Of a stretch of DNA of 64,000 nucleotides, positions 4,841 to 63,846 are shown one piece after another. Position numbers and translations under genes: made by a program. Location: the NCBI GenBank assembly GCA_041652815.1, contig JBAZGN010000001.1:317855-381854 (forward strand), in the 5' to 3' direction. The stretch comes from Candidatus Omnitrophota bacterium (GTDB lineage Bacteria; Omnitrophota; Gorgyraeia; Duberdicusellales; 4484-171). The notes beneath the pieces are model-generated. The model searched no databases. It was not told where the DNA came from and saw nothing but the letters and a program-made list of their open reading frames with translations. Numbering within the stretch: position 1 is the stretch's first letter; the number at the start of each line of letters is the position of its first letter.

Positions 4841-4905
4841 AAAGCTTTCAGCTATCAGTCTTCAGCTCTCAGCTGAAAGCTGACGACTGAAGGCAGAGAG
4901 CTTTA
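4841..4905. repeat. Compound palindrome, CAGCTGAAAGCTG family (B1)
   Basis: aagctttcagctatcagtcttcagc / gctgaaagctgacgactgaaggc arms. Related copies are at 18589, 20403, 39496, 46402 and 63749. Confidence 0.85.
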
Positions 4906-4915
4906 AAGGAGACGT

Positions 4916-5272
4916 ATGTGGATTGGTTATGTAATTTTGGGTTTGGCTGCTGGGACGCTTAGTGGGCTTTTAGGCATCGGCGGAGGATTAATCCTTATAC
5001 CAGCACTTGTTTATATCTTTGGGTTAACACAACATCAAGCTCAGGGCACGACCCTTGCCTTTATGATTCCACCCATAGGTTTACTTGCCGCGCTTAAATA
5101 TTATCACGACGGCAACGTAAAACTTAATATTGCTATGTTCATGTGCTTGGGGTTTTTTATTGGCGGACTGTTGGGGGCAATGTTCGTTAACAAAATACCA
5201 GAACTTTTGCTTAAAAGGATATTCGGCATAGCTTTATTGTTGGCTTCTCTGCGGATGATTTTTGGAAAATGA
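4916..5272 (+). CDS. Half-size TauE/SafE (DUF81, TSUP) family membrane protein
   Basis: 118 aa, LGIGGGLILIPALVYIFGL motif, 4 TM segments. Confidence 0.6.
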   Translation: MWIGYVILGLAAGTLSGLLGIGGGLILIPALVYIFGLTQHQAQGTTLAFMIPPIGLLAALKYYHDGNVKLNIAMFMCLGFFIGGLLGAMFVNKIPELLLKRIFGIALLLASLRMIFGK

Positions 5273-5327
5273 ACCCTTTCCTAAGCCCTAACGGCGTTTA
5301 GTTTAAAAGGCAAAAGAGAATAATTCA

Positions 5328-5759
5328 TCAACGCACGTCTTTCTCGATTATTTTAAGTAAATCTTCTCTTAATTTATCTTTTGTCCACAGGCAGTAACCT
5401 ACATAAAGGTCATATTTCAGCGAATAAAATACATTAGGAGCGCATTCCCAGGTTTTAAAACTCATCGGTAATTTACTATAAGAAATATCAATATACGTAC
5501 CTTCTTTCTTTCCGATTTTCTTCCATGGTTCACCATATGTAATGTAAAGCTCGTCCCTGCGCGATTTCTTTAGCGCAGTATTATCAAAAGCCTTGAGGTC
5601 ACTGTGGTTTTGTTTTAACACAATGATATCATCATAAATCTTCTTGATTATTTCGTTGCCGCCTTGGATGTAAGATTCGGCGAAAGCATTTGGAGCAAAG
5701 GGTATCAAGGAAACGAAAAATAGAATTGCCAGAATGCACGCTTGCATATTTTTTGTCAT
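5328..5759 (-). CDS. Hypothetical secreted protein (island gene 6)
   Basis: Signal peptide MTKNMQACILAILFFVSLIPFAPNAFA. No recognisable domain. Confidence 0.5.
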   Translation of the reverse strand: MTKNMQACILAILFFVSLIPFAPNAFAESYIQGGNEIIKKIYDDIIVLKQNHSDLKAFDNTALKKSRRDELYITYGEPWKKIGKKEGTYIDISYSKLPMSFKTWECAPNVFYSLKYDLYVGYCLWTKDKLREDLLKIIEKDVR

Positions 5760-5853
5760 TTTTACCCCTTTCTTAAAAGTACCCCAGTCACCGGTCTTAA
5801 GCCGCCCAGTTTTGACTTGCCAGTAGAGCTATGGGGCGCTTCTTTAGCAAAAA

Positions 5854-6189
5854 TTACTTTATAAACCTAATACATAGGGGATACTTAAAATCTTCACCTT
5901 TACTTGTCTTTACGGCTGCAATGATTACCATAACATAATTAAAAATTATTACCGCAGGGAAAAGAAAAAAGCCAATCAGCATAAATGCCGAAAGCCACGC
6001 CCCAATTAGATAAATTATGATAGAAATCTGAAAATTTAAAGATTCTTTGCCATTCTTGTCGACGGCTGCCGATTCGCCATTCTTAACTAACCAGAGAATC
6101 AAAGGTCCCAAAAATCCGATTAGCCCCAAAAGATGACATGCCATTGCTAAATTGTTCTCTTGTTTATTCTGCGCTTCTGCCATAAACAC
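5854..6189 (-). CDS. Small membrane protein, DUF4870-like
   Basis: 111 aa with two to three TM helices (HLLGLIGFLGPLILWL). Confidence 0.45.
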   Translation of the reverse strand: MFMAEAQNKQENNLAMACHLLGLIGFLGPLILWLVKNGESAAVDKNGKESLNFQISIIIYLIGAWLSAFMLIGFFLFPAVIIFNYVMVIIAAVKTSKGEDFKYPLCIRFIK

Positions 6190-8071: not shown

Positions 8072-8319
8072 AAATAAGCAGGGGCTGCCAAAAGGCAGCC
8101 CCGCGCCTTGGGTCGAAGCCCAAGGGTAGTTAGCATATTTCTTTCAATTAAAATATATACCATAACAACCATTTTTGTCAAATTTTTATTTTACTCATTA
8201 TACCACCCCCATCATAAATCAAAAGTATTTTTAAGCACAGATTGTATAGCTAGAGTTAACCTAAATCAACGAATAAACTAACATTTGAAACTACCCGCAT
8301 TCTATAATACAATAGGTAA

Positions 8320-11920: not shown

Positions 11921-11959
11921 CAGATAGCAGATTGCAGATAGTAGATAAAATAAAAACAC

Positions 11960-13714
11960 ATGGATAGAAAAGGAATTATTACAAAAATTGTCGCAAACAT
12001 GGTAAGCGTGCGGGTGGATGGCTCTGTCACCCAGAACGAAGTTGCCTATATTTTGCATGGGCCAGAACGCCTCAAAGCCGAGGTTATCCGCATCCGCGGT
12101 AAAATCGCTGAAACCCAGGTGTATGAATCAACAACAGCCCTTAAGGTTGGAGATGAAGTAGAGCTTACCGGAGAGTTGCTTTCGGTTGAATTAGGCCCTG
12201 GCCTCTTGGGGCAAATTTTCGATGGCCTGCAAAATCCGCTTCCTCAGATAGCAAAAGAATGCGGATTTTTTCTTAAGCGCGGCGTATATAAAAAGGCACT
12301 TGTTGATAGTACAACCTGGGAATTTAATCCTCTGATTAAAAAGGGCGATACTCGCCGGGCGGGAGATAAAATTGGATATGTCAACGAACACATTTTTAAG
12401 CACTACATCATGGTGCCCTTTGGTTTAAAGGGAATACTTAAAATAAATTCCATAGCCGCCAAAGGCACCTATGATCTTACACAGCCTATAGCTACGATTG
12501 AAGAGCCAAACGGAAAAACACACGAAGTATTTTTAAAACAAATCTGGCCGGTAAAAATTCCTATTGAAGCCTACGCTGAAAAAATAAAGCCAATTGAACC
12601 ATTGGTTACTAAAATACGTATCATAGATTCGCTTTTTCCGGTTAGCCTTGGGGGAACTTATTGCGTTCCCGGGCCTTTCGGCGCAGGCAAAACTGTCTTA
12701 CAGCAATTAATCAGCCGGCACGCCGAAGTTGATGTAGTAGTTATTGCTGCCTGCGGCGAACGCGCCGGCGAAGTTGTCGAAACCTTAAAAACTTTTCCGC
12801 AGATAAAAGACCCGCGCACAAATTTACCTTTATCCGAGCGCACAGTTATTATTTGTAATACCAGCTCAATGCCTGTTGCGGCACGTGAATCAAGCGTCTA
12901 TACCGCTGTAACTATTGCCGAATACTACAGGCTTATGGGTTTAAACGTAATGCTTCTGGCTGATTCAACAAGCCGCTGGGCGCAGGCGATGAGAGAAATG
13001 TCCGGCCGGCTAGAAGAGATTCCGGGAGAGGAAGCTTTTCCTGCTTACCTTGAATCTCGGATTGCCTCATTTTATGAGCGAGCAGGTTTAGTTCGTTTAA
13101 ACGACGGCACATTCGGTTCGGTTACAATTGGTGGGACGGTAAGCCCTGCCGGAGGAAATTTCGAAGAACCGGTAACGCAGGCGACATTAAAAGTTGTCGG
13201 AACATTCCATGGCCTGTCACGCGACAGGTCAAACGCAAGAAGGTATCCGGCAATTGACCCGCTAATAAGCTGGAGTAAATATAAAGGTATTATTGAAGAT
13301 AGTTTAATTGCGCGCGGGCATGCAGTGCTTGATAAAAGCCATGAAGTTGAGCAGATGATGAAAGTTATTGGTGAGGAAGGAACCTCTCTGCCGGATTTTG
13401 TAGAATATCTTAAGGGTGAATTTTTCGATTTTGTATATTTGCAGCAGAATGCATTTGACGCGGTGGATGAATCGACAGAAGCGCCCCGCCAAAAATATAT
13501 TTTTGGTTTTATTTATTCAAATATTTTTGAAAAAGATTTTAACTTTATTGATAAAGACGCAGCCAGGCATTTTTTCCATACCCTTCGGCAAGCTTTCAGA
13601 GGATGGAACTCAAGCGAGTTTGAGAGCGAAGAGTTTAGAAGAATAGAAAGAGAAATAGTTAGTGCAATTAGTATAAAAATAACCAAGCTCCAAGATACAA
13701 TAACCAAACAATGA
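11960..13714 (+). CDS. ntpA: V/A-type ATPase catalytic subunit A
   Basis: P-loop GPFGAGKTVL, 584 aa. The last codons and stop codon lie inside repeat E1. Confidence 0.95.
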   Translation: MDRKGIITKIVANMVSVRVDGSVTQNEVAYILHGPERLKAEVIRIRGKIAETQVYESTTALKVGDEVELTGELLSVELGPGLLGQIFDGLQNPLPQIAKECGFFLKRGVYKKALVDSTTWEFNPLIKKGDTRRAGDKIGYVNEHIFKHYIMVPFGLKGILKINSIAAKGTYDLTQPIATIEEPNGKTHEVFLKQIWPVKIPIEAYAEKIKPIEPLVTKIRIIDSLFPVSLGGTYCVPGPFGAGKTVLQQLISRHAEVDVVVIAACGERAGEVVETLKTFPQIKDPRTNLPLSERTVIICNTSSMPVAARESSVYTAVTIAEYYRLMGLNVMLLADSTSRWAQAMREMSGRLEEIPGEEAFPAYLESRIASFYERAGLVRLNDGTFGSVTIGGTVSPAGGNFEEPVTQATLKVVGTFHGLSRDRSNARRYPAIDPLISWSKYKGIIEDSLIARGHAVLDKSHEVEQMMKVIGEEGTSLPDFVEYLKGEFFDFVYLQQNAFDAVDESTEAPRQKYIFGFIYSNIFEKDFNFIDKDAARHFFHTLRQAFRGWNSSEFESEEFRRIEREIVSAISIKITKLQDTITKQ

Positions 13715-13794
13715 CCAATAACCAAATCTCAATAACCAAACAAAAACCAATATCTCCGTTTGGTTATTGGATATTGGAATTTGTTTGGAGCTTG
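13677..13794. repeat. Compound palindrome, AACCAAACAA family (E1), overlapping the ntpA 3' end
   Basis: aaataaccaagctccaagatacaataaccaaacaatgaccaataaccaaat...ccgtttggttattgg. It is >90% identical over ~60 nt to E2 at 33439. Confidence 0.85.
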
Positions 13795-13905: not shown

Positions 13906-15213
13906 ATGCATAAAATTTATACAAACATCAGCCAGATTTCCGGAGACGTTATTACTGTAGCTGCTTCCGGCGTAGGCTACATGGAAATTGCCCAAGTTGA
14001 GACACGTCTTGGCATGTCCCTCGCGCAGGTAATAAGGCTTGATGGCGACAAGGTTTATTTACAGGTTTTTGCCGGAAGCAAAGGCATATCAACCGGAGAT
14101 AAAGTCCGTTTCTTGGGGCACTCCATGAATGTATCGAGCGGCGAAAGCTTACTCGGCCGTATATTTAACGGAGTAGGCTTACCTCTGGATAAAGGCCCGG
14201 CTCTCTCAGAAAATATAATTGAAATAGGAGGGCCGCCGGTCAATCCTGTCAAACGCATCATACCCAATAAAATGATACGTACAGGCATACCAATGATAGA
14301 TGTTTTTAATTCGCTGGTTGAATCACAGAAGCTTCCGATTTTTTCTATTGCCGGTGAGCCTTACAACGAAGTGCTTGCGCGAATAGCCACTCAGGCAGAA
14401 ATAGATATTATAGTTTTAGGCGGTATGGGCTTAAAGTATGACGACTATCTTTTTTTTAGAGACAACCTGCGCGCGCGCGGCGCACTTAGCCGCTCCGTAT
14501 TTTTTATTCATACAGCCGCAGACCCTACGGTTGAATGCCTGCTTGTTCCGGACATTGCGCTTGCGGTAGCCGAGGATTTCGCTCTTTCCGGAAAACGCGT
14601 ATTGGTATTGCTTTCTGATATGACTAATTTTTGCGACGCGCTTAAAGAAATATCAATTACAATGGAGCAGGTTCCTTCTAACCGCGGTTATCCCGGAGAC
14701 CTTTACTCCCAGCTGGCAAGCCGGTATGAAAAAGCCGTAGATTTTGATACAGCCGGTTCAATTACAATCCTTGCAGTTACTACAATGCCCGGCGATGATG
14801 TAACGCACCCGGTGCCGGATAATACCGGCTATATCACCGAAGGGCAATTCTATCTTAAGGGTGGGGTTATCGAACCGTTTGGTTCTTTAAGCCGGCTCAA
14901 ACAGCAGGTTAATGGAAAAACCCGCGATGACCACAGAACGATTATGGATACAATGATTCAGCTTTTTGCCAGTTACCGTGAAACGCTGGAGAAGCAGGCA
15001 ATGGGTTTTCATATGAGCGCCTGGGATAAAAAACTCTTGAAATACGGCCTTTTGTTTGAAGAGCGAATGATGTCTTTAAAAGTAAACATACCGCTTGAAG
15101 AAGCTCTTAACTTAGGCTGGGCAATTATGAAAACTTGTTTTTCGCCTGAAGAAACAGGAATACGGAAAGCAATAATTGAGAAGTATTGGGATAAAGCCGA
15201 AATAATAAGTTAG
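13906..15213 (+). CDS. ntpB: V/A-type ATPase subunit B
   Basis: 435 aa, non-catalytic subunit signature ([19 protein letters not shown]). Confidence 0.95.
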
Positions 15214-15318
15214 GTTACGAAGGTTACGAAAGTTACGCAGGTTACGAAGGTTACAACAAACCTTCGATGTTTTAAAAGTAACATTGTAACTTCTCGTAAC
15301 ACCCGTAACCTTCGTAAC
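15212..15318. repeat. Compound palindrome, GGTTACGAAGG family (A1)
   Basis: taggttacgaaggttacgaaagttacgcaggttacgaaggttacaa ... cttctcgtaacacccgtaaccttcgtaac. Copies are at 30582, 39134 and 42995. Confidence 0.9.
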
Positions 15319-15326
15319 AGATACAT

Positions 15327-15947: not shown

Positions 15948-16040
15948 TTTGATTTAGGTATAAACGCGAATAAACGCAAATGGAAAAAATGTAAAAATTA
16001 TTCGCGACCATTCGTAAGAATTCGCGAGAATTTGCGTTAA
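15915..16040. repeat. Compound palindrome, CGCGAATA family (I1)
   Basis: gaatacgcgaatgaacgcgaatttgc ... aaacgcgaataaacgcaaatgg ... attcgcgaccattcgtaagaattcgcgagaatttgcg. The paralog is at 56011-56140. Confidence 0.85.
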
Positions 16041-17809: not shown

Positions 17810-17819
17810 TTTTATGACA

Positions 17820-17948
17820 AACTCTAAACCCGAAATCCTAAACTCTAAACAAACTCGAAACTACAAATTACAAATTCCAAACGTTTTGAGTTTAGAGTTT
17901 CGAGTTTATAGTTTATTTAGAGTTTCGAGTTTAGTGTTTAGGGTTTAT
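17820..17948. repeat. Compound palindrome, AACTCTAAAC family (C1)
   Basis: aactctaaacccgaaatcctaaactctaaacaaactcgaaac ... gtttagagtttcgagtttagtgtttagggtt. The copy is at 23709. Confidence 0.9.
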
Positions 17949-17964
17949 CTTAAAGGGAGGAGTT

Positions 17965-18588: not shown

Positions 18589-18677
18589 AGCTTTCAGCCA
18601 TCAGCTATCAGCAATCAGCCCCTCCCAAGGGGCGCCCTTGAAGGGTGGCTGAAGACTGACGACTGATAGCTGAAAGC
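18589..18677. repeat. Compound palindrome, CAGCTGAAAGCTG family (B2), with a GC-rich core cccaaggggcgcccttgaaggg
   Basis: agctttcagccatcagctatcagcaatcagcc...ggctgaagactgacgactgatagctgaaagc. Confidence 0.9.
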
Positions 18678-20402: not shown

Positions 20403-20467
20403 GCTCTCAGCTTTCAGGCGTCAGCTGCCAGCCGCTGAAAGCTGAAGACCGATAGCTGACAGCTTTT
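20403..20467. repeat. Compound palindrome, CAGCTGAAAGCTG family (B3)
   Basis: gctctcagctttcaggcgtcagctgccagccgctgaaagctgaagaccgatagctgacagc. Confidence 0.85.
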
Positions 20468-21167: not shown

Positions 21168-21368
21168 ATGCCAAAGCTAAAAACAAAAAAAGCGTTCGCG
21201 AAAAGAGTAAAGGTTACAAAAAATAAAAAGATCCTTCGTTCAAAAGGAAGCAGGAGGCATCTTTTAAGCGCACGGAGTGAAAAAAGAAAAAGATTTTTAC
21301 GCAAAAAAGCGCTTGTCGCTGGCGTAGACAGAATGGCGGTAAAAAGGTCATTGCCGTATTCATTCTGA
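21168..21368 (+). CDS. rpmI: 50S ribosomal protein L35
   Basis: MPKLKTKKAFAKRVKVT canonical N-terminus, 66 aa. Confidence 0.9.
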   Translation: MPKLKTKKAFAKRVKVTKNKKILRSKGSRRHLLSARSEKRKRFLRKKALVAGVDRMAVKRSLPYSF

Positions 21369-46464: not shown

Positions 46465-47343
46465 ATGATTTGCGATAGCCATATACATTTTATTCCTCAG
46501 GAGATATCGGAAAATACTTCCTTTTATAAAGGGATATGGTCGGATAAAGTCCGGCTTTTTGAATTTCTGGATGTAAACAAGATTAATAAAGCGCTTTTGG
46601 TTTATCCGGCTACAGACGCGCATGTAAAATTAGGCTGGCAGAAATTATGTGAACTTTATAACTTTTTTTTGGCAGCATTAGTAGAAGAAAATCCCAAAAT
46701 TATCGGCTTTGGGATAGTTGATTTAAGTAGTAACATCTCTGCGCAGGTAAAGCATTTAAGAGAAGAGGGTTTCAAAGGAATCAGTATACCTTCTAGCCAG
46801 GACGGCGCATTCATTTTAGACAAACTTAAACCTTTGTTTGAGGCAGCAGAAAAACATAAACTTGCCATTTTCGTACACCCGCAGACAATAAACCCGATAG
46901 GTTTTGAACGCGTAAAAGACCCGCTTTTAATGCCGGTTTTAGAATACAGCTTTGATAGTTCTATGTTTTTAGGCGCTTTGATGATGGAAGGGATTTTAGA
47001 AAAATTTAATGTAAATTTTATTTTTTCATCTCTTGGCGGGGTCGTGCCATTCTTAAAGGACAGGTTCGACAGGGTTTATATGATGCTTAGGTCCCGCGAT
47101 ATGGTTAAAGATTTAGGCAAGCCGCCTTCAGAAATACTTAAAAAAGTATACGTCGATACTTCTGGTTCCTCCTTGGCAAACATCAAACTCGCAATTGATT
47201 TATTCGGTGAAGATAAAATTCTCTGGGGCTCGGATTATCCGGTAAATGCTAACATTCCAGAGAATTTAAATATATTGCAAGATTTAGATATAAATACAAA
47301 AAATAAAATTTTAAAAGAAAATTTTATCAGCCTGTTTAAATAA
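46465..47343 (+). CDS. Amidohydrolase-2 (ACMSD / aromatic-acid decarboxylase-like TIM-barrel metal hydrolase)
   Basis: N-terminal SHIHFIP, C-terminal LWGSDYP motif. Confidence 0.65.
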   Translation: MICDSHIHFIPQEISENTSFYKGIWSDKVRLFEFLDVNKINKALLVYPATDAHVKLGWQKLCELYNFFLAALVEENPKIIGFGIVDLSSNISAQVKHLREEGFKGISIPSSQDGAFILDKLKPLFEAAEKHKLAIFVHPQTINPIGFERVKDPLLMPVLEYSFDSSMFLGALMMEGILEKFNVNFIFSSLGGVVPFLKDRFDRVYMMLRSRDMVKDLGKPPSEILKKVYVDTSGSSLANIKLAIDLFGEDKILWGSDYPVNANIPENLNILQDLDINTKNKILKENFISLFK

Positions 47344-47360
47344 AGAAAAGAGGAGGTATT

Positions 47361-48176
47361 ATGAGCAATCCTGACAAAAACAAAAGAAGGGATATAGAAA
47401 AACCGGCAGTTCATACTACCATCGTTGGCGGCCGGCCACCAGGCTGCGGCAAAGAGATAGACAAAGTACCCAGGGGTATTGAAATTTTAGTTAAAAAAGC
47501 ATCTGTAGATCCTTCTTTTCGGGAAATTCTATTAAAGGAAAGAGCTGCTGCAGCAAAACATATAAACCTTTGTCTGGTAGAAAGCGAAGCAATTATTCTA
47601 AATACTATTTCAAAAGCTCAGCTAGAAGGAATGATTTTAGCAACGAAAGTGCATCCAAACTTAAAAGAGGTTTTTTTAGGCTGTACTGCCGCAGTGATGT
47701 TAGCGGCACTAACTACTACCGTAAATGCTTCAGATGATAGACGCGAAGTCGGAGGAATTAGGCCCGATGATGCTCCTGTTTCTTGCGATGAGAAGGAGAA
47801 CCCTTCATTTTTTAAGGCGGAAGAAGATAAACAGTTAGAAACAGGGATTTTGTTAGTAGAAGTTTTTGACCGCGCTACCAACAAGCCCGTAAAGGATGCA
47901 AAAATATATTTTCATAAACACAATGCAGGAGAAAAGCCACGCACGCCTACGTATGGAAAAGGGTATACTGACGAAAAGGGGCAATACATAATAAAAGAAA
48001 TACCCGTGGGAAGATTTTATATTCTCGTAAGTGATTGCAGTGGCAGAACGCCATACGAGAACACTTATCTAGACATTGCTGCCGGCAAGGAAAATAAAAT
48101 CACATTTAAAGTAAATAAAGATAATAACCCTCCATCATTATGGCACTACCAAACAAGAGGGATTAGTCCCAAATAA
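47361..48176 (+). CDS. Hypothetical protein with a C-terminal carboxypeptidase-regulatory-like (Ig-fold) domain
   Basis: GILLVEVFDRATNKPVKDAKIYF...TDEKGQYIIKEIPVGRFYILV. A hydrophobic central segment. SD AGAGGAGG. Confidence 0.45.
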   Translation: MSNPDKNKRRDIEKPAVHTTIVGGRPPGCGKEIDKVPRGIEILVKKASVDPSFREILLKERAAAAKHINLCLVESEAIILNTISKAQLEGMILATKVHPNLKEVFLGCTAAVMLAALTTTVNASDDRREVGGIRPDDAPVSCDEKENPSFFKAEEDKQLETGILLVEVFDRATNKPVKDAKIYFHKHNAGEKPRTPTYGKGYTDEKGQYIIKEIPVGRFYILVSDCSGRTPYENTYLDIAAGKENKITFKVNKDNNPPSLWHYQTRGISPK

Positions 48177-48186
48177 TATTAAGCCA

Positions 48187-49650
48187 ATGCGTGCAGACAT
48201 AACTTTGATTAATCTTAATATGCTTTTTATTCATTACGCCAATGGATTTGAAAAGGAACGTCATGTTCCGCTTGGCCCTTTATATCTTACTAGAGCGTTG
48301 GAGGATGCAGGCTTTGAAGTTGATTTTCGCGATTATCAAACTTGGTCCTGTAAAGACCCTTTTGATTTGAATGAATTTCTCGATTTCATGAAGGACCCTT
48401 CTCCTATTGTAGGATTTTCCTGCATGGCCAATTTATTGCCATTTACTATTCTGGCTACAAGGGCATTTAAACAGCGACATCCAAATTGTAAAATTATCTT
48501 AGGTGGCGTAGGGTCAAAATGCGTTGAAGAAAAAATACTAAAACGGTTTCCCTGGATAGAGTTAATCTGCCGCGGTGAAGGCGAAATAACCGGCCCTCAG
48601 CTTTTAAAAGCTCTAAAAACCGGGCAGAACCTGCGTGATATTAGGGGCATATCCTACCGGGAGGGTGAAGAAATTATCCATAATCTAGACCAGGAAAGGA
48701 TAACCAATCTTGACGTAATTCCTTTCCCGCAATTTAACAAAGTCAACCTTAAGGATTATGTCGGCTATGGTATGATGACCAGCCGCGGCTGCCCTTATCC
48801 TTGCACTTTTTGTTCTGTAGCGCCGATATGGAATTTGAATTATTATTCAAGAAGCCCCAAAAATATTGTTTCCGAAATGAAGCGCCTGCACCAAGAAGCA
48901 GGGATTGAAATATGCCTTTTTCAGGACGAATTTTTTGTTTCCGGCAAAAGACAAGTTATGGAATTCTGTAAAGAGTTTTCTGATTCAGGGCTTAAAATAC
49001 GATGGAAAGCTTTCGGCAGAATTAATCTTTGCGACACAGAAATGATGCAGGCTATGGCTGATACTGGCTGTGTTGAGCTTCGTTTTGGTATTGAATCGGG
49101 CTCTGACAATGTGCTTAAGCGCATAAAAAAAGGATTTACTACAAGCGAGGTTATGGAGATAATCCCCAAGGCTATTGAGATGTTTCCAAGAGTAGATACT
49201 TTCTATGTCTGGGGTTTTCCCTTCGAAAGCATGGAAGATTTTAATCAAACTCTTTTTCAGATGATTTCGTTTCGTTCAATGGGCGCCCGCATTCTCCCGA
49301 GCCTTCTTTCTCTATTGCCACAAACCGAAATTTATAAAGAGTGGGCGCCTCAGGCAAAGTTGGAACTTTGCCCTGATTTACTTCCGGAATTCGTGCTTAC
49401 TGGCCATGAGATTTGTAGCGGCATAGATATCTCTATACCCGAAAATTACAAAGATTATTTTAAACTTATTAAGGACAATCCGGATATATTCTCCGGTTTT
49501 TTTCTTATTGACACAAAAAACAATGTTTTACCTAAGCTTGAGCTTTTACGGCAATTCGGTTTCTATCCTTATTCCGAGAAACATAATAAAGATGAGCAGG
49601 CAGAAAGTTGCGGTGCGCATTCTCCTCATATAGCGCCTTCAAAAAAATGA
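48187..49650 (+). CDS. Second class B (cobalamin-binding) radical SAM enzyme
   Basis: The CPYPCTFC motif, with an N-terminal B12-binding-like domain. Confidence 0.8.
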   Translation: MRADITLINLNMLFIHYANGFEKERHVPLGPLYLTRALEDAGFEVDFRDYQTWSCKDPFDLNEFLDFMKDPSPIVGFSCMANLLPFTILATRAFKQRHPNCKIILGGVGSKCVEEKILKRFPWIELICRGEGEITGPQLLKALKTGQNLRDIRGISYREGEEIIHNLDQERITNLDVIPFPQFNKVNLKDYVGYGMMTSRGCPYPCTFCSVAPIWNLNYYSRSPKNIVSEMKRLHQEAGIEICLFQDEFFVSGKRQVMEFCKEFSDSGLKIRWKAFGRINLCDTEMMQAMADTGCVELRFGIESGSDNVLKRIKKGFTTSEVMEIIPKAIEMFPRVDTFYVWGFPFESMEDFNQTLFQMISFRSMGARILPSLLSLLPQTEIYKEWAPQAKLELCPDLLPEFVLTGHEICSGIDISIPENYKDYFKLIKDNPDIFSGFFLIDTKNNVLPKLELLRQFGFYPYSEKHNKDEQAESCGAHSPHIAPSKK

Positions 49651-50459
49651 TTATGAAAATATACCACAATGGAAAAATTGCTGATAAAGATACTTTAGAA
49701 GAAATTTTTGAACCGGGATTTCTTTTTGGTTGGGGTGTTTTTGAAACCTTACGCGCATATAATGGCAAAGTGCCATTTTTGGATTTACATATTGCCCGGT
49801 TAAATGATGCTCTTAATACATTAGGCATAGAAGAGCTCAAAACAGATTTCAAAGCTAAGATAAACGAACTTTTAAAGGTAAATAATTTAGAAGATGCCTA
49901 TATAAGAATTACTGCTTATAAAAAAAGAGAGTCTACTGGAGTGCTTATCTATGCAGATAAGTTCGGCTATTACCCTCAAAGCGCGTACGAAAAAGGATTT
50001 AGCGCCGTTATCTCTCCTTACCGGCGAAATATAAAAAATAACTTTTATACCATTAAATCATTGAGTTACCTTGAAAACAGGCTTTCCTGGTTTGAAGCGC
50101 AAAAGCAAAATAAAGATGAAGCTTTAGTTTTAAATGAAGATGGGTTTTTATCGGGTGGTTCCCGCAGCAATTTATTCATTGTAAAAGATCAGGACGTAAT
50201 TACTTCAAGCATTGAGAGCGGAGCATTTGACGGCATAACAAGAAAAATAGTAATTAGTGAGTTGAAAAAAATGAATATAAGCGTAAAAGAAGCACAAATT
50301 AGCATTGAAAATTTGTTTTCCTGTGCAAAAGAGGCATTCCTGACCAGCGCTTTACTGGAAGCAATGCCTTTGGTAGAATGTGGGGGCAAAAAGATAGGGG
50401 ATGGTAAACCCGGCAAGGTCACACTTAATGTTTTGGAGCAATACAGAAGCATCTTATAA
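49647..50459 (+). CDS. Class IV aminotransferase / aminodeoxychorismate-lyase family protein
   Basis: An ATGA overlap with the upstream radical SAM gene. Fold-type IV PLP motifs (RLNDAL, EAFLTSA). Confidence 0.7.
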   Translation: MIMKIYHNGKIADKDTLEEIFEPGFLFGWGVFETLRAYNGKVPFLDLHIARLNDALNTLGIEELKTDFKAKINELLKVNNLEDAYIRITAYKKRESTGVLIYADKFGYYPQSAYEKGFSAVISPYRRNIKNNFYTIKSLSYLENRLSWFEAQKQNKDEALVLNEDGFLSGGSRSNLFIVKDQDVITSSIESGAFDGITRKIVISELKKMNISVKEAQISIENLFSCAKEAFLTSALLEAMPLVECGGKKIGDGKPGKVTLNVLEQYRSIL

Positions 50460-50474: not shown

Positions 50475-50608
50475 TTAAATCACAAATTACAATGTACAAA
50501 TTACAAACAAATCACAATTCCGAAATCACAATAAACAAACATTTTTGTTATTTTGGAATTGTTTATTGTGTATTGTTTGTAATTTGTGGTTTGTGTATTG
50601 TAAATTAA
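50475..50608. repeat. Compound palindrome, CAAATCACAAT family (D2), complete
   Basis: aaatcacaaattacaatgtacaaattacaaacaaatcacaattccgaaatcacaataaacaaac...gtttattgtgtattgtttgtaatttgtggtttgtgtattgtaaatt. Confidence 0.85.
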
Positions 50609-53372: not shown

Positions 53373-53489
53373 AGAATAGAGAGGCAATTAATTTCTATAA
53401 ATTTCAATGGCAATCGAAATTGGTATAAATTAAGGAATTAGTAGAAATTGATTGTGTAATGAATCTCTCCACCTAATAAATATAAAATA

Positions 53490-56009: not shown

Positions 56010-56010
56010 G

Positions 56011-56140
56011 ACGCGAATATTCGCGAATTCAAAACCTTGATAGTTTCTTAAGGTATAAACGCGAATCCACGCGAATGGGAAACAAAAGCGGATAAAACTA
56101 TTCGCGACCATTAGCGTTAGATTCGCGAAAATTAGCGTTT
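56011..56140. repeat. Compound palindrome, CGCGAATA family (I2)
   Basis: gacgcgaatattcgcgaattc...aaacgcgaatccacgcgaatggg...attcgcgaccattagcgttagattcgcgaaaattagcg. Confidence 0.85.
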
Positions 56141-57989: not shown

Positions 57990-58082
57990 AGCACAGACTA
58001 TCACAGATTTTTAAGCGGATGATCACAGATAAAATCATCTGCGATTATCTGTGATTTCTCATCTGTGACCATCTGTGTCTTG
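57990..58082. repeat. Stand-alone CACAGAT-family palindrome
   Basis: gcacagactatcacagatttttaagcggatgatcacagataaaatcatctgcgattatctgtgatttctcatctgtgaccatctgtg. Confidence 0.9.
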
Positions 58083-58749: not shown

Positions 58750-60300
58750 ATGGGTATTATTTACGTATTATTGGGTATTGTTGCCGGCCTGGTTTCAGGA
58801 TGGTGGCTCGGCGAAATTTTCGAAAAAAATAAGCTTAAAAAAGCAAAAGATGATGCGGACAAAATCCTAAAAGAAGCAAAGTTAAAAGGCGAAGAAGCCA
58901 TTCGCAAGGCCGATTTAGACGGAAAAGAATTGCTTTATAAACTGCGAATGGATTTCGATAAGCAGCACGCCGGAAAAAAAGAAGAACTGTTTCAATTAGA
59001 AAAAAGGCTCATCCAGCGCGAAGAAAATCTTGAAAAAAGGCTGGATTTTATCGAGACCAAAGAACAGGAGCTTTCTGCAAGAGAGGCAAACCTTAAAAAA
59101 CTTTCCCAGGAGCTTGAAAATAAGAATGAAAATTTACGGCAGTTAATTGAAGAAGAAAAAGAAAAATTAAAAAAGATTTCTTCTCTTACCCAGGAAGAAG
59201 CAAGAGAGCTTCTGCTTAAACGATATGAAGAAGAATTAAGGTCAGAAAAAGCAAAATTGATAAGGGTAATGGAAGAAGAAGTTAAGGAAGAAGCTGAAAA
59301 GAAAGCTAAAGAAGTAGTTTCTCTTGCCATACAAAGATGTGCGGTTGAGCAGACTACCGAAACTACAGTAAGCGTTGTGCAGCTTCCTAATGATGAAATA
59401 AAAGGCAGAATTATAGGCCGCGAGGGCAGAAATATCAGGGCATTTGAAATGGCAACCGGGGTCGATTTGGTTATAGACGATACGCCCGAGGCGGTTAATC
59501 TTTCAAGCTTTGATCCAATAAGAAGAGAAGTCGCGCGCATCTCGCTTGAAAGGCTTATCCAGGACGGAAGAATCCATCCGGCAAGGATAGAAGAGATTGT
59601 TGAGAAAACCAAGCAGGATTTTGAAAAGCAATTAATGGAGGAAGGCAAGGCCGCTGCTTTTGAAATAGGCGTGCACAATCTTCATCCGGAGATGATAAAG
59701 CTTTTGGGGAAATTAAAATACCGTACCAGTTTTGGCCAGAATGCGCTTCAGCACTCGAAAGAAGTGGCTTTTATCATGGGAGTTCTTGCTTCAGAGCTTG
59801 AACTTGACCCCCGGCTTGCAAAAAGAGCAGGCCTCTTGCATGATATCGGCAAAGCAGTAGACCATCAGGTTGAAGGAACGCATGCTCAAATAGGCGCGGA
59901 ACTTTTAAAAAAGTACGGTGAAAACGAAACAGTTGTAAACGCCGCAGAAGCTCATCACGAAGAAAAAGAATTTAGTTCCATATATTCGCTTCTCGCTCTT
60001 ATATCCGATGCTATTTCCGCGTCCCGTCCCGGAGCAAGAAGGGAAACGCTCGAGAGTTATATTAAAAGATTAAGACAGCTTGAGACTATAGCCAATTCTT
60101 TCCCGGGCGTTGATAAAAGTTATGCTATTTCTGCCGGACGCGAAATAAGAGTGATAATTCAGCCAAGCAAGGTAAAAGATGAAGAGGTTGCCCTTCTCGC
60201 TCATGAAGTAAAAAAGAAGATAGAGGCTGAAATGGATTACCCCGGTAACATAAAGATAACAGCGATACGGGAAACCAGGGCAATCGATTACGCTAAATAG
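58750..60300 (+). CDS. rny: Ribonuclease Y
   Basis: N-terminal TM helix, coiled coil, KH domain (GRIIGREGRNIRAFE), HD domain (LLHDIGKA). Confidence 0.9.
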   Translation: MGIIYVLLGIVAGLVSGWWLGEIFEKNKLKKAKDDADKILKEAKLKGEEAIRKADLDGKELLYKLRMDFDKQHAGKKEELFQLEKRLIQREENLEKRLDFIETKEQELSAREANLKKLSQELENKNENLRQLIEEEKEKLKKISSLTQEEARELLLKRYEEELRSEKAKLIRVMEEEVKEEAEKKAKEVVSLAIQRCAVEQTTETTVSVVQLPNDEIKGRIIGREGRNIRAFEMATGVDLVIDDTPEAVNLSSFDPIRREVARISLERLIQDGRIHPARIEEIVEKTKQDFEKQLMEEGKAAAFEIGVHNLHPEMIKLLGKLKYRTSFGQNALQHSKEVAFIMGVLASELELDPRLAKRAGLLHDIGKAVDHQVEGTHAQIGAELLKKYGENETVVNAAEAHHEEKEFSSIYSLLALISDAISASRPGARRETLESYIKRLRQLETIANSFPGVDKSYAISAGREIRVIIQPSKVKDEEVALLAHEVKKKIEAEMDYPGNIKITAIRETRAIDYAK

Positions 60301-60375
60301 TCTACAGTCCATAGAGAGCGAAGCCTCCCCGCAGGGGACCATAGTCCACAGTTCCAATCTATGGACTATGGACTA
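60299..60375. repeat. Compound palindrome, GGACTATGGACT family (H2)
   Basis: agtctacagtccatagagagcgaagcctccccgcaggggaccatagtccacagttccaatctatggactatggact. Confidence 0.85.
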
Positions 60376-60421
60376 AAATTAAGATTGTTGATTCAACAAA
60401 AAGTATTAAAATATAATAATT

Positions 60422-61213
60422 ATGAAGATTTTATTCCTTGGCGATATAGTGGGAAAGCCGGCCAGAATCTATCTGAAAGAGCTTCTCCCGTCTTTAAGAA
60501 AAAGCTTAAGCCTTGATTTTATAGTTGCAAACGGAGAAAACGCTGCCGGCGGTTCAAGTATTACTCCGGATACAGCATCGGATCTTTTTAACAGCTCAAT
60601 TGATGTAATTACCACAGGCGACCACATATTCAAAAAGCAGGAATCAAAGCAGGTGCTTGAGACAATGGATGTTGTGCGTCCGCTTAATTATGGCGAACTC
60701 GCAGCAGGCAGGGGCTATCTCATAAAAGAAGTAAGCAATAAAAAAATAGGCGTCGTTAATCTCCTGGGAAGGGTATTTATGCCGCCGATGGACTGTCCTT
60801 TTAGAGCAGTCAGAAATATAATCGAAGACTTAAGAAGTAAAGTTAAGGTAATTATTGTTGATATGCATGCTGAGGCAACGAGCGAAAAGCTTGCAATGGG
60901 GTATTTTCTTTCAGGCAAAGTGACAGCTGTAGTTGGCACGCACACGCACATACCAACAGCGGATGAAAGAATAATCGACGATTTTACTGCCTACATTACC
61001 GACGTTGGAATGACAGGAAGCTTTGATTCGGTTTTAGGCAGGGAAAAACATCAGATAATTGAGCGTTTTGTTACAAATATGCCGGTTCGTTTTAATTTAG
61101 CACAAGGCGATGTGCGTATGCAGGGCGTAATAATTGAAACAGATGATACAACCGGCAAGGCGCTTTCTATAAAAAGGGTGGAATATAAACAAGACACAGA
61201 TGATCACAGATGA
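60422..61213 (+). CDS. ymdB: YmdB-like metallophosphoesterase (TIGR00282 family)
   Basis: MKILFLGDIVGKPAR, GENAAGG. Conserved position downstream of rny, as in Firmicutes. Confidence 0.8.
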   Translation: MKILFLGDIVGKPARIYLKELLPSLRKSLSLDFIVANGENAAGGSSITPDTASDLFNSSIDVITTGDHIFKKQESKQVLETMDVVRPLNYGELAAGRGYLIKEVSNKKIGVVNLLGRVFMPPMDCPFRAVRNIIEDLRSKVKVIIVDMHAEATSEKLAMGYFLSGKVTAVVGTHTHIPTADERIIDDFTAYITDVGMTGSFDSVLGREKHQIIERFVTNMPVRFNLAQGDVRMQGVIIETDDTTGKALSIKRVEYKQDTDDHR

Positions 61214-61285
61214 GAAGAAAAAACACAGATGATCACAGAAGATTTTATCTGCGATCATCTGTTTTGCATCTGTGCTAATCTGTGT
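61192..61285. repeat. Stand-alone CACAGAT-family palindrome (overlaps the ymdB 3' end)
   Basis: acacagatgatcacagatgagaagaaaaaacacagatgatcacagaagattttatctgcgatcatctgttttgcatctgtgctaatctgtg. Confidence 0.9.
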
Positions 61286-61307
61286 AACCGAACGAAGTGA
61301 GGTTAAA

Positions 61308-61667
61308 ATGGATTATCAAGGTATAGAAAAACGTAGATTCGTAAGAGCAAAATTCCCTTGCTGTATTACCATTCATACTTTACACGACCACATAATAACT
61401 ACGTATACCGAAAATATTTCCGCCGGGGGAGTGCGTGTGATAATTGAAGAAAAACTCGAGATGGCTTCTACGGTTGGTTTGGAAATACAGATTAATAAAA
61501 ACATTATCGTATGCAAGGGAAGGATAGTCTGGGTTGTCGACCGTGAAAGCCCTTATAAAAAAGGCGTGCTTTATCATGATACCGGTATAGAATTCTATGA
61601 AATAAAGGAAAGTGACAGGTGCATCATACACGATGCCATAGACGAAATTCTTAAAGGCGAAAAATGA
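61308..61667 (+). CDS. PilZ-domain protein (putative c-di-GMP receptor)
   Basis: RRFVRAKF and ENISAGGVRV match the PilZ RxxxR / DxSxxG motifs. SD GAGG before ATG 61308. Confidence 0.7.
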   Translation: MDYQGIEKRRFVRAKFPCCITIHTLHDHIITTYTENISAGGVRVIIEEKLEMASTVGLEIQINKNIIVCKGRIVWVVDRESPYKKGVLYHDTGIEFYEIKESDRCIIHDAIDEILKGEK

Positions 61668-63538
61668 TTCTAGAGAATATAAATTCCCCAAAAGACCTTA
61701 AGGCTCTTGATATCGATAAGCTAAATATTCTAAGCCAGGAAATAAGAGACTTAATCGTTACGGTAGTTTCCAAAAAAGGCGGCCATCTTGCCTCATCTTT
61801 AGGCGCGGTTGAATTAACTATTGCGCTACACTATCTTCTCGATACTCCGCAAGATACAATTATTTTTGACGTCGGGCATCAAATCTATGCGCACAAGATA
61901 TTAACCGGCAGGCGGCAATCTTTTGTTAATTTGCGAGAACATAAGGGTATAAGCGGATTTCCGAACTCAGCGGAATCCGCATACGATACTTATATATCAG
62001 GGCATGCTTCAACAGCTGTTTCCTGGGTGCAAGGCATATCTGAGGCAAAGAAAATAAAGAAAAACAATTCAAAGACTGTTGCGATAGTCGGTGATGGCTC
62101 TCTAACCGGTGGTATGTGTTTTGAGGCACTTAACGCCTGCGGGCACGCTCAAAGCGATTGTTTGGTTATTTTAAATCATAACGAAATGAGTATCTCTCCA
62201 TCAGTAGGCGCACTTAGCAACTATCTTGTTAAGATTACTTCAATGCCGGTTTATAACCGCATAAAAAATGAATTGGAATCTTTTCTCGACCACTTTGCGA
62301 TTACAAAAAAATTAACCATTAAAGCAAAGAGATTTGAAGAAGCCCTCAAGGGCCTGATTGTTCCTGGTATATTTTTCGAAGAACTCGGGTTTAGGTATTT
62401 CGGGCCTATTGACGGGCACGATTTTAATAAACTCCTCCCAACGCTTAAAAACATTATTCCCTTAAAAGGGCCAAAAATACTTCATATTATTACCAAGAAA
62501 GGAAAAGGCTATAAACCCTCAGAAGACAATCCGGAAGATTTTCATAGCGCATCGAAATTCGATGTAGCTACCGGATTGGCCGTAAGCGAAACTAAAGACG
62601 GTTTTGGCGAAGTTTTTTCAAAGAAACTGATTGAGCTTGCCAAGAAAGATAAAAGAATTGTTGCTATAACCGCGGCTATGCCTAAGGGAACCGGACTGCA
62701 TTTATTTAAAGAGCAATTCCCGGACAGGCTTTATGATGTGGGTATTGCCGAGCCTCACGCAGTGGGCTTTGCCAGCGGCCTCGCTAAGGGAGGGATTAAG
62801 CCGGTAGTTGCACTGTATTCTACATTCCTCCAAAGGTCATTTGACCAGATAATTCACGACGTGGCATTGCAGAATTTAAACGTAGTTTTTGCGATAGACC
62901 GCGCAGGCGCCGTAGGCGAAGATGGACCAACGCATCATGGTGTTTTTGATATAGGTTATTTAAGAATGATTCCTAACATGGTTTGTGTGGCGCCTAAAGA
63001 CAGCCGCGAGCTTGAGGATAGTTTGGAATTTGCACTTAGCCTGAATTCGCCTTGCAGTATCCGTTATCCAAAAGGTGAAGCTTATTCGTTAGGGTTCGAT
63101 GAAAAAATTTCATTAGGAAAATCACAAATTATCTGCGAAGGAAAAGATGTGTGCATAATTGCGCTCGGTGCCATGGTTAAAAATGCTCTTAATTGTGTAG
63201 CGTTGCTTAAAGGCGAGGGAATCAGCGCTTTATTAGTAAATGCCAGGTTTATAAAACCTCTCGATGAAAACCTGCTTAATTATATAGGAAACAATTTTAA
63301 AGTGATAGTTACGCTTGAGGAAGGCAATTTGGCTTGCGGTTTCGGCAGCGCTATCGCAGAATTTTTCGGTAATGTTGGTATTTCTGAAAAAGTTAAATTA
63401 ATCCGCGCGGGCTTTCCTGATGAATTCATTACTTTCGCAAAAAGAGAGAAACTTTTTGAAATATATGGCTTAGACGGCGCCTCTTTAGCAAGCCGCATCA
63501 AACACGTTTTGGTAAATGAAATTCTTCTTCAAAAATGA
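61664..63538 (+). CDS. dxs: 1-deoxy-D-xylulose-5-phosphate synthase
   Basis: 624 aa, TPP motif GDGSLTGGM, transketolase-like C-terminus. ATGA overlap with the upstream gene. Confidence 0.9.
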   Translation: MILENINSPKDLKALDIDKLNILSQEIRDLIVTVVSKKGGHLASSLGAVELTIALHYLLDTPQDTIIFDVGHQIYAHKILTGRRQSFVNLREHKGISGFPNSAESAYDTYISGHASTAVSWVQGISEAKKIKKNNSKTVAIVGDGSLTGGMCFEALNACGHAQSDCLVILNHNEMSISPSVGALSNYLVKITSMPVYNRIKNELESFLDHFAITKKLTIKAKRFEEALKGLIVPGIFFEELGFRYFGPIDGHDFNKLLPTLKNIIPLKGPKILHIITKKGKGYKPSEDNPEDFHSASKFDVATGLAVSETKDGFGEVFSKKLIELAKKDKRIVAITAAMPKGTGLHLFKEQFPDRLYDVGIAEPHAVGFASGLAKGGIKPVVALYSTFLQRSFDQIIHDVALQNLNVVFAIDRAGAVGEDGPTHHGVFDIGYLRMIPNMVCVAPKDSRELEDSLEFALSLNSPCSIRYPKGEAYSLGFDEKISLGKSQIICEGKDVCIIALGAMVKNALNCVALLKGEGISALLVNARFIKPLDENLLNYIGNNFKVIVTLEEGNLACGFGSAIAEFFGNVGISEKVKLIRAGFPDEFITFAKREKLFEIYGLDGASLASRIKHVLVNEILLQK

Positions 63539-63750
63539 ATGCTCCAATCATTATCTCAATAGACAAAGAAAAATGCAAAGGTTGTCAGCTTTGTATTTTC
63601 TTTTGTCCTTCAAAAAATCTTGTTTTGTCGCAAGATCTGAATAAAAAAGGAATAAAATACGCTAAAGTCAAAAATACATCCTCTTGCAGCGGATGCGGTT
63701 TCTGTTTCCTGGTTTGCCCGGATTGTTGTATAGAAATATGCGAAAAATAG
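63535..63750 (+). CDS. 2x[4Fe-4S] ferredoxin (probable delta subunit of a 2-oxoacid:ferredoxin oxidoreductase)
   Basis: CKGCQLCIFFCP and CSGCGFCFLVCP. Confidence 0.7.
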   Translation: MNAPIIISIDKEKCKGCQLCIFFCPSKNLVLSQDLNKKGIKYAKVKNTSSCSGCGFCFLVCPDCCIEICEK

Positions 63751-63846
63751 CTATCAGCCCTGCCTGCCGGCAGGCAGCTTTCAGCCCCCCCAAGGGGCGC
63801 CCTTGAAGGGCAGCTGACAACTGACGCCTGAAGGCTGATAGCTTTA
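63749..63846. repeat. Compound palindrome, CAGCTGAAAGCTG family (B6), with nested GC-rich cores
   Basis: agctatcagccctgcctgccggcaggcagctttcagcccccccaaggggcgcccttgaagggcagctgacaactgacgcctgaaggctgatagctt. Confidence 0.9.

Follow-up and report, generated by a model that had tools for sequence, protein, structure and literature searches.

Short tandemly repeated repetitive (STRR) sequences are hairpins of tandem 7-bp repeats that lie between genes of filamentous cyanobacteria, as in the hupS-hupL spacer and the nif intergenic regions (PMC2670836). They have been proposed to stabilise transcripts or to couple translation, and their function has no agreed answer (PMC2670836). A protein partner has been postulated for the Nostoc heptamers (bioRxiv 10.1101/2022.06.06.494920). 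The 23S rRNA intervening sequence (IVS) of Coxiella is a 428-nt hairpin that carries a PF05635 open reading frame (ORF) in its loop and is excised by RNase III (PMC4990558). Its GACAGAT heptamers vary in number between strains, and selfish spread has been suspected (PMC4990558). Here, we describe tandem-word hairpins in a 64,000-nt stretch of a Candidatus Omnitrophota genome (contig JBAZGN010000001.1, positions 317,855 to 381,854; hereafter the window). These hairpins are mobile-like palindromic repeats of the STRR and IVS kind in a new phylum, and are neither repetitive extragenic palindromic (REP) elements nor classical terminators. An incomplete literature search returned no description of such hairpins in Omnitrophota and no account of a general association between PF05635 genes and tandem-word arms.

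The consensus words of STRR1 to STRR3 are CCCCAGT, TTGGTCA, and CAACAGT. As in STRR sequences, a tandem 7-nt word followed by its inverse forms an intergenic hairpin in the window, several word families coexist, and cyanobacterial PF05635 genes were found here to be bracketed by such arrays. Unlike STRR sequences, the elements reside in Omnitrophota, lack the STRR1-3 words, use periods of 9-10 besides 7, and fill 48-60% of intergenic DNA, with species-level turnover of copies shown here. Like the IVS of Coxiella, Leptospira, Salmonella, and other bacteria, they have terminal inverted repeats that produce a long stem, contain heptamers in variable number, and exist with and without a loop gene. 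That gene is again PF05635, carried by the B (GGTTAC) family in related contigs, not in the window. The Coxiella IVS word GACAGAT can be compared with CACAGAT and GACAGAT here. However, IVS sit in helix 25 or 45 of 23S rRNA, with proven RNase III excision, whereas the Omnitrophota elements occupy spacers of protein-coding operons and positions beside tRNA genes. The window contains no rRNA gene.

The curated set comprises 34 hairpins and three partial arrays in about 16 word families. The hairpins total 3,561 nt (5.6% of the window and 48% of its intergenic DNA), and they make up 60% of intergenic DNA from 10.7 kb onward. Gap-by-gap folding gave long hairpins with visibly periodic arms, a median folding z of -6.8, and z < -3 for 32 of the 34. 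A strict inverted-repeat finder that allowed no wobble, controlled with five block shuffles, returned 35 repeats scoring at least 36 (1-3 in the shuffles) and 27 scoring at least 44 (0-1). Period-7 tandem arrays numbered 33, against 2-6 in the shuffles, and across 64 loci there were 273 arrays of period 7 and 27 of period 8. Wobble-tolerant inverted-repeat scoring was dropped as too permissive (224 matches versus about 200 in shuffles), and an Lfold scan as too unspecific. Rfam searches, at gathering thresholds and at E ≤ 1, matched only tRNA-Val and, on hairpins, two miRNA models by chance. An independent ENA contig (L064), 99.73% identical over 10,358 nt, contains about nine of the hairpins without any difference. 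Because all of its hairpins are identical, they are neither assembly artefacts nor hypervariable, and hypervariability between strains was rejected. All 28 differences in this contig fall inside 352 nt (35341-35692) of the ApbA/PanE-like gene at 34823-36469, which suggests a recombination tract.

The twelve word pairs listed in the original prediction, which was made from the letters of this DNA alone, are all present in the window, and the predicted density beyond that of usual REP and bacterial interspersed mosaic elements (BIME) was borne out. Its copy numbers needed correction, with four rather than six copies of the GGTTACGAA family (B) and six rather than two of the TCAG/CAGCTG family. 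Near-identical dispersed copies exist for GGTTACGAA (87-90%), one CACAGAT pair (87%), one TCAG pair (82%), and GCGGAT (80%), but copies in other families are 50-73% alike and have mainly a 4-7 nt core word in common. The statement that nearly every gap is filled describes the window from about 11 kb on (about 31 of 50 gaps of at least 30 nt) but not its first 10.7 kb, which has one element only. Words of 7-10 nt had been reported; the period is mostly 7, with 9 for GGTTACGAA and about 10 for CACAGAT, GCGGAT, and CGCGAAT. Not every element has two intact arms: two are direct-only arrays (11921-11947, 43923-43953), and in another one arm has decayed (29745-29830, z -2.5).

The arms repeat a conserved 4-7 nt core and a variable spacer in tandem, with a period of 7, 9, or 10 (TCAG+NNN, GTTACG+NNN, CACAGAT+NNN, (C)GCGGAT+N3-5). 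In the B family, five 6-bp helices (GTTACG/CGTAAC) alternate with mismatched spacers that are conserved across copies, and the B element is thus an interrupted rather than a perfect palindrome. Its ends are sharp (TTAGGTTACG...CGTAACCTAA), with terminal inverted repeats and unrelated flanks. Elements start between -9 and +19 nt from the upstream stop codon, mostly at 0-4 nt, and in several cases the stop codon is itself part of the element; their far ends lie 0-25 nt ahead of the next start codon. Hairpins adjoin tRNA genes as well as filling protein-coding spacers. In some compounds, CACAGAT-type arms surround a GGTTGCG or AACCAAA hairpin, and several elements have small GC-rich palindromes nested within one arm or located at the apex.

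Many Omnitrophota loci, though not all, contain heptamer-armed hairpins, with 0-11 period-7 arrays per 10 kb. The loci examined from CP070807 and CP070684 are free of inverted repeats. Where the same gene pair is retained in conserved order, relatives (63-97% amino acid identity, or 70-87% nucleotide identity) have overlapping genes, no gap, or a hairpin of another family. For example, the gap after the gene at 34823-36469 holds a GTCCATA hairpin in the window and ACGTGAT, CACAGAT, and AACTAC hairpins in three relatives (L001, L004, and L005, respectively), and the gap after V-ATPase subunit I holds AAACTCT in the window and GGTTACGAA in L076. Word families also recur in other species at non-orthologous loci. 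A metagenome scan with a B 20-mer found 15 further B copies in unrelated flanks, besides the four in the window; among them are copies that abut tRNA genes, copies with one arm reduced in unit number, and copies with nested palindromes. In one filled/empty pair, L075 has a 149-nt B insertion that the window lacks at about 8262-8275; TAACC is present once where the insertion is missing and flanks it on either side in L075, where it overlaps the element's own end. Direct repeats of 6-7 nt, seen by eye and inconsistent in length, flank two of 15 other copies (30578 and L079). Judged by sequence, the elements are shown by these comparisons to be dispersed DNA repeats that are lost and replaced over short evolutionary distances, and we infer that they are mobile.

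The original prediction of an uncharacterised mobile system therefore stands as far as many dispersed families gained, lost, and replaced are concerned, but an architecture without precedent does not, as cyanobacterial STRR (PMC2670836) and the Coxiella IVS (PMC4990558) came before it. The comparison of strains and bins that it proposed yielded one filled/empty pair and turnover between species, but no hairpin difference in the 99.7% identical L064 and no target duplication of consistent length. In another contig (L073), a B element at 1131-1244 occupies the place of a 499-aa ORF (1849-3348, no Pfam match) and its downstream spacer in the window (1849-3680), a difference in gene content.

A second form of the B element carries a gene. 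In L074, a left B arm is followed by a 132-aa ORF and a right arm just upstream of acpP, the position of the window element at 39131-39243. The ORF matches PF05635 (23S_rRNA_IVP, E 1.3e-16) and TIGR02436 (four helix bundle protein), and its closest solved structure is the pentameric Xanthomonas protein XCC0516 (PDB 2GSC). PF05635 four-helix-bundle proteins are relatives of Avd of diversity-generating retroelements. The ORF has 552 homologues, mostly on 1-2 kb contigs. Seven homologues (59-73% identity to the L074 ORF), from Omnitrophota-labelled, Planctomycetes-labelled, and unlabelled metagenome contigs, all lie among GGTTAC- or GGTTGC-type word arrays. In six of these (L253, L255, L257, L259, L261, L245), the gene is bracketed by inverted arms that often overlap its start and stop, and in the seventh (L237) a complete hairpin stands on either side of the gene.

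The same arrangement with other words is found around PF05635 genes elsewhere. The arms are GGGTGTA/TACACCC in Nostoc punctiforme (L262), GTAGGGA/TCCCTAC in N. edaphicum (L263), GGGGCTA/TAGCCCC in both Halotia (L268) and an Acidobacteria metagenome-assembled genome (MAG; L267), and GGGGCTG/CAGCCCC in a Methylophilaceae MAG, where the locus lies between guaB and guaA (L266). A Calothrix locus (L264) has GGGTGTA with the left arm only in view, and a Pseudanabaena locus (L265) has an AAAGCT hairpin upstream and nine AAAAGCC units downstream. Tandem-word arrays accompany all 15 PF05635 loci examined, which come from four named phyla and unlabelled metagenome contigs; inverted arms bracket at least 12 of them, and the word type goes with the protein clade. 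The Pseudanabaena locus lies on plasmid pPg_01 of P. galeata (46268-46627), where the four-helix-bundle gene and its long AAAGCT/AAAAGCC arrays are inserted into a CRISPR-Cas locus, between cas6 and cas4.

The loop ends of gene-less B elements (AAT...TTTTTAAAT) resemble the junctions of gene-carrying copies, which fits an origin by internal deletion. These comparisons show the GGTTACG-family hairpin to be the gene-less counterpart of a PF05635 cassette; the GGTTGCG-family hairpin is likely to be another, and for the remaining families we infer the same cassette origin. Miniature inverted-repeat transposable elements (MITEs; Correia, RUP, BOX, Nezha, Chunjie) are similarly short, non-coding, and hairpin-forming, with defined ends, insertion between operon genes, and probable derivation from a longer element by internal deletion. 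Unlike in MITEs, the longer form here encodes a four-helix-bundle protein rather than a known transposase, and the arms are periodic rather than simple terminal inverted repeats.

The account that we consider probable is one of many palindromic element families that turn over, are gene-less counterparts of PF05635 cassettes, and are tolerated with the help of RNase III. In the cassette, inverted arrays of the same words would bracket a small PF05635/TIGR02436 gene, and the gene-less hairpin would derive from it, a pair that would parallel the two forms of 23S rRNA IVS. Elements survive only where they are harmless, in the handful of nucleotides that separate a stop codon from the following ribosome-binding site. 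In operon mRNA, by analogy with IVS, the element would fold into a long interrupted stem that RNase III could cut out, and the cut would split the transcript between cistrons, which would make the insertion tolerable. The conserved cores suggest recognition by a sequence-specific protein, for which the cassette's four-helix-bundle protein would be the obvious candidate.

Several observations weigh against parts of this account. No PF05635 gene lies within the window and, among the Omnitrophota PheT and metagenome loci, L074 alone carries cargo; viral contigs gave two borderline matches (E 5e-4). A search of the Omnitrophota loci for cargo-bearing hairpins with arms 200-900 nt apart returned one weak case only (L029). 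Cargo in this lineage accompanies only GGTTAC or GGTTGC words, and about 14 other families have no known gene-carrying form. The PF05635 gene could also be a passenger that inserts into hairpin loops, and we know of no demonstrated role of PF05635 proteins in mobility. No transposase domain was detected in the approximately 50 window ORFs scanned. There is one filled/empty pair only, ambiguous between insertion and deletion, and the absence of any indel or substitution in about nine hairpins of two 99.7% identical strains means that movement is not fast. The stems are interrupted every 4-7 bp, which bears on the RNase III step. Finally, orientation bias and core conservation could point to a host function instead of selfish spread.

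A broader proposal, which we put forward only tentatively and with rather low confidence, would unite the Omnitrophota hairpins, STRR sequences, and 23S rRNA IVS in one class of mobile cassette. The autonomous form would encode a pentameric, Avd-like PF05635 protein that would recognise its own words and promote copying, possibly with a reverse transcriptase, as Avd does in diversity-generating retroelements. Excision by RNase III would make the insertions harmless, both in operon spacers and in rRNA helices. Recognition of words by the element's own PF05635 protein would explain why clade and word covary and why each arm has about five units.

The alternative that survives best, although we judge it unlikely, is that the hairpins are non-mobile RNA elements selected by the host for protection from 3' exonucleases, endonucleolytic processing, or factor-dependent termination. 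Placement fits this view, with starts 0-4 nt past stop codons, ends just before the next ribosome-binding site or start codon, and most gaps of co-directional operons occupied. RNase Y is encoded in the window, and STRR sequences have been proposed to stabilise transcripts or couple translation (PMC2670836). Word cores are also conserved above neutral. The B copy in L078, orthologous to a window copy, shares 89% identity with it, and two of its 12 changes fall within the 60 core positions; for the neighbouring V-ATPase genes, identity at third codon positions is 71%. Across 13 B copies, core positions are conserved in 12-13 of 13, and spacers and loop vary. It is the sequence of the words that is conserved, with cores far above neutral, and there is no positive sign of selection on RNA structure.

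Such a sign was sought in base pairing. None of 33 pairs showed a compensatory double change across the 13 B copies; G-U mispairs (71) are about as frequent as A-C mispairs (75) in 32 elements; and folding energy is the same for both strands. These mispair counts and energies give no evidence of selection on the sense-strand RNA. The A/C-rich arm is usually 5' on the sense strand (about 24 of 29 co-directional cases), as a host function might lead one to expect, but this bias is not interpretable because family copies are non-independent and the directions of transcription and replication coincide. A run of T residues after the stem is absent in 33 of 34 elements, the exception being TTTT at 20403-20463. 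Intrinsic (Rho-independent) termination was rejected, as the stems lack a U-tract, are long, interrupted, and mostly AT-rich, and lie within operons such as that of the V-ATPase; the termination role suggested in the original prediction is accordingly weak. The mRNA processing that it also suggested may apply, by analogy with the way RNase III excises IVS. The hairpins are thus neither classical terminators nor demonstrably RNA-selected, given the missing U-tract, the missing covariation, and equal G-U and A-C counts. A host function also fits poorly with close relatives in which the gap is empty, the genes overlap, or an unrelated family is present, and with the tolerance of nested insertions and truncated arms.

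Still less probable is local growth, in which slippage duplicates a word and intrastrand template switching copies the arm, with no transposition. Unit number does vary, one-unit 'seed' versions exist (L004 5767-5813; L005), four families are single-copy in all data examined, and TCAG copies have the core word alone in common. Strains of Coxiella also vary in heptamer number (PMC4990558). However, at least 15 B copies with unrelated flanks agree in the order of their variant units and in their mismatched spacers, the same families occupy different loci in different species, and arm-to-arm copying would erase the conserved asymmetric B spacers.

REP elements and BIME are extragenic palindromes found within operons, in several families and at high copy number, and are tolerated in mRNA (PMC3116915). 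The Omnitrophota elements are likewise extragenic, within operons, multi-family, and high-copy. Movement of REP/REPIN-type elements by a REP-associated tyrosine transposase (RAYT; IS200/IS605-like) acting on single-stranded hairpins is nevertheless very unlikely here. This mechanism would suit palindromic, extragenic elements in several families, small palindromes inserted with no target duplication, and an orientation bias relative to the leading or coding strand. Unlike REP and REPIN sequences, however, the arms are direct tandem words, with no 20-40 nt unit headed by GTAG/CGTC, no inverted doublets, and no alternating mosaic. No Y1 transposase domain was found in the approximately 50 window ORFs scanned, and about 16 families would require many cognate RAYTs in a small genome. 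Across 1.23 Mb of related sequence, a tblastn search with IS608 TnpA, which is a weak test, had no match.

Intergenic direct repeats of TAACTGA and other heptamers are scattered patchily over the phylogeny, in Beggiatoaceae, cyanobacteria, and Bacteroidetes (PMC4679880). The Beggiatoaceae-type heptamers lie just upstream of start codons, in 169 direct sets versus one inverted set (PMC4679880). They resemble the window arrays as intergenic tandem heptamers, but are almost all direct repeats rather than hairpins. The GTTACG-N3 pattern occurs in at least 120 IMG/VR contigs, mostly with no inverted partner. In 26 of 120, three GTTACG-N3 units, a 60-100 nt centre rich in alternating CG/CA, and inverted CGTAAC-N3 units combine the B core and 9-nt period in an origin- or iteron-like layout (for example L085, L092, L093, L101, L102, L108-L110, L115, L118, and L120). 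The pattern was rejected as evidence for carriage of B elements by phages, as GTTACG-N3 is mostly unpaired and the 26 contigs have this different architecture. Double-stranded iteron-like arrays of binding sites for a sequence-specific protein (nucleoid, replication, or regulation) are the least probable explanation of the hairpins: conserved cores with variable spacers, the GTTACG-N3 arrays around a 60-100 nt centre in those 26 of 120 contigs, and the protein partner postulated for Nostoc heptamers (bioRxiv 10.1101/2022.06.06.494920) speak for them, but about 16 unrelated words would require as many proteins, positions turn over between close species, and a 7- or 9-bp period is off helical phasing.

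The four B elements of the window vary in context. The copy at 15209-15320 (z -11.9), with five units per arm, contains the TAG stop of its gene within the first word and is the one with the 89% identical orthologue in L078. Another lies between convergent genes and abuts both stop codons (30578-30690, z -9.3), a third precedes acpP (39131-39243, z -9.6), as the gene-carrying form does in L074, and the fourth (42992-43135, z -7.8) has a 28-nt hairpin (TTAATTCTTCC..GGAAGAATTAA) nested in its right arm. A GGTTGCG/CGTAACC hairpin is found at 41736-41832 (z -6.4), with the word type that flanks the PF05635 gene in L245. The TCAG-core heptamer family includes AGCTNTC x4 with its inverse at 4841-4904 (dG -34.4, z -8.3), which begins 2 nt past a stop codon, and a hairpin directly 3' of tRNA-Val (18590-18677, z -7.4) with a GC-rich palindrome nested at its apex (about 18618-18650). 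Its other members are at 20403-20463 (between thrS and infC), 39494-39559, 46402-46462 (z -7.8), and 63750-63846, which carries two nested GC-rich palindromes (CTGCCTGCCGGCAGGCAG, 63760-63777; AAGGGGCGCCCTTGAAGGG, 63792-63810).

CACAGAT hairpins lie at 34749-34835 (z -8.6), 57990-58075 (87% identical to the former), and 61194-61285 (z -10.5), the last with its left arm overlapping the 3' end of a ymdB-like gene. The GCGGAT family is represented at 31678-31771 (ATAGAAGCGGAT...ATCCGCTTCTAT, z -8.0), with further members at other loci in L004, and at 37790-37883 (z -8.7), where it separates two fabF-like genes that overlap in L001 and supplies a TAG stop. CGCGAAT hairpins are found at 15957-16040 (z -3.1), a position with no gap in L076, and at 56010-56140 (z -6.6). 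The AAACTCT family comprises a 144-nt element (17811-17954, z -5.5), whose gap has a B element in L076, and one at 23711-23880 (z -9.5) with the palindrome CTGCCTGCC...GGCAGGCAGG nested in its left arm (23737-23777). An AACCAAA hairpin (13680-13790, z -6.2) overlaps the end of the V-ATPase A gene with its left arm, at a gap with other families in L076 and L078. The GTCCATA/GGACT hairpin at 36461-36527 (z -9.1) has the TAG stop of its gene inside the left arm and is replaced by a different family in each of L001, L004, and L005; a GGACT hairpin with a GC-rich insertion in its left arm follows the RNase Y gene (60301-60380). AAATCAC words form a hairpin at 50475-50608 (z -7.0) and an array whose right arm has decayed (29745-29830).

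Other words include CTAGATG between pheS and pheT (27209-27290, z -8.2; other families in L001, L004, and L005), GAAACCA (22000-22072, z -7.4), ACAGTGATT with a period of about 20 (22749-22820, z -5.6), GTATCAC/ACGTGAT (34389-34466), the 10-mer GAAATTAGTA (53388-53450, z -3.2), and a short, weak CGCAGAT-type hairpin (40368-40410). Three elements are compounds: outer CAGAT-type arms around a GGTTGCG-type hairpin (25927-26112), weak as a single fold (z -0.7); outer CAGATTAGCG arms around a GGTTGCG hairpin (29287-29503, z -4.4); and outer CACAGAT arms around an AACCAAA hairpin (33420-33640, z -9.3), whose flanking genes overlap by 4 nt in L001, L002, and L061. The direct-only heptamer arrays, both on the + strand, are CAGATAG x3.9, a half element (11921-11947), and AGTAGAG x4.3 (43923-43953), which has a hairpin version in L004. 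A GTCACAG x4.6/ACCTGTT hairpin (25398-25490) lies inside the first 31 or so codons of ORF 25396-25926 and is apparently translated as a signal-peptide-like N-terminus. The conserved part of this ORF starts at residue 27, and the N-termini of its homologues in L001, L004, and L054 are similar in length but unrelated.

The nested inserts are repeats in their own right. A perfect 20-nt palindrome, CCTGCCTGCCGGCAGGCAGG, is nested in arms of unrelated word families, and sites of this type are found in the window (23737-23777 and 63760-63777), in L075 (466-479), L034 (1754), L062 (10384), and L063 (2410), and in IMG/VR contigs L202-L236. Exact copies occur in 35 IMG/VR contigs of 38-68% GC, often within heptamer arrays (L202, L207, L210, L223, L225, L227), within apparent tRNA genes (L203, L226, L233), and beside a tRNA in a Roizmanbacteria contig (L063). 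The CCTGCCTGCCGGCAGGCAGG inserts show no visible duplication at their flanks, and target duplication by nested GC-rich palindromes was rejected as the source of the 7-nt periodicity, as their flanks show no duplications. Elhai et al. reportedly described small dispersed repeats (SDRs) of Nostoc in 2008. Like SDRs, the 20-nt GC-rich palindrome CCTGCCTGCCGGCAGGCAGG and similar inserts sit in word arrays and in one another; unlike them, they differ in sequence, and the same 20-mer spans contigs of 38%-68% GC and enters tRNA genes. Another GC-rich insert, AAGGGGCGCCCTTGAAGGG, belongs to a hairpin of about 30 nt and is present at two sites (18627-18645 and 63792-63810), each time at the apex of a TCAG hairpin, with none expected by chance.

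The window and its relatives share two further repeats. A larger, non-periodic structured repeat of about 240 nt is present at 21368-21650 in the window, in L004 (15512-15748 and about 13900), in L005 (about 15470), and in L061 (about 2480). It starts with AATGA(A/G)GCCAACATTTTT...AAAAATGTTAGGCTGAATT, contains two or three GC-rich hairpins, and closes with ...GCTCATTAAAGGAGG just before a start codon, and its ends pair. Copies in related species precede different genes, and the repeat has no Rfam match. A small repeat, CCGCCACC..ATAGGCGGATCAGCCTTTGGCTGA, occurs at 29820-29865 in the window, in L002 (about 8260), in L005 (about 12010), and in L063 (2376-2404). It is common to Omnitrophota loci and the Candidatus Roizmanbacteria (Candidate Phyla Radiation) contig, where it adjoins the 20-nt palindrome and a tRNA gene.

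The top matches of the window's PheT (27304-29286) are all Candidatus Omnitrophota MAGs, the closest at 76-83% identity. The window has a GC content of about 0.39-0.40 and a positive GC skew throughout, with nearly all genes on the + strand. Its genes are housekeeping genes, including the V-type ATPase operon, thrS-infC-rplT, trkA/trkH, pheST, a fatty-acid-like cluster with two ketosynthases and acpP, and RNase Y with ymdB. The region at 31857-50459 is an unusual lipid or polyketide-like cluster with hairpins between most of its genes. It encodes an AMP-ligase, the two ketosynthases, acpP, a cyclase, a polyketide cyclase-like protein, a major facilitator superfamily transporter, a short-chain dehydrogenase, two B12-binding radical SAM enzymes, and an amidohydrolase. 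The RNase Y and YmdB-like phosphoesterase genes are adjacent (58750-61213), and a hairpin follows each of them. They show that mRNA decay machinery of the RNase Y type exists in this organism; no gene for RNase III was seen in the window.

In the window, an uncultivated phylum is seen to have such hairpins at very high density. Relatives of the window provide the comparisons missing for cyanobacteria, namely filled and empty sites, replaced families, and gene-carrying and gene-less forms. In practice, the repeats break short-read assemblies, as most PF05635 contigs are 1-2 kb, and inflate ORF calls at gene starts. To our knowledge, STRR sequences and 23S rRNA IVS, known for about 35 years, have no accepted origin or function, and the large PF05635/TIGR02436 family has no assigned role outside diversity-generating retroelements. 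The association of PF05635 with word arrays makes an old descriptive puzzle testable, through word binding by the protein and RNase III excision. If true, the reading of all these elements as a single cassette would give a very large orphan protein family a function and would explain heptamers that have been puzzling since 1990.

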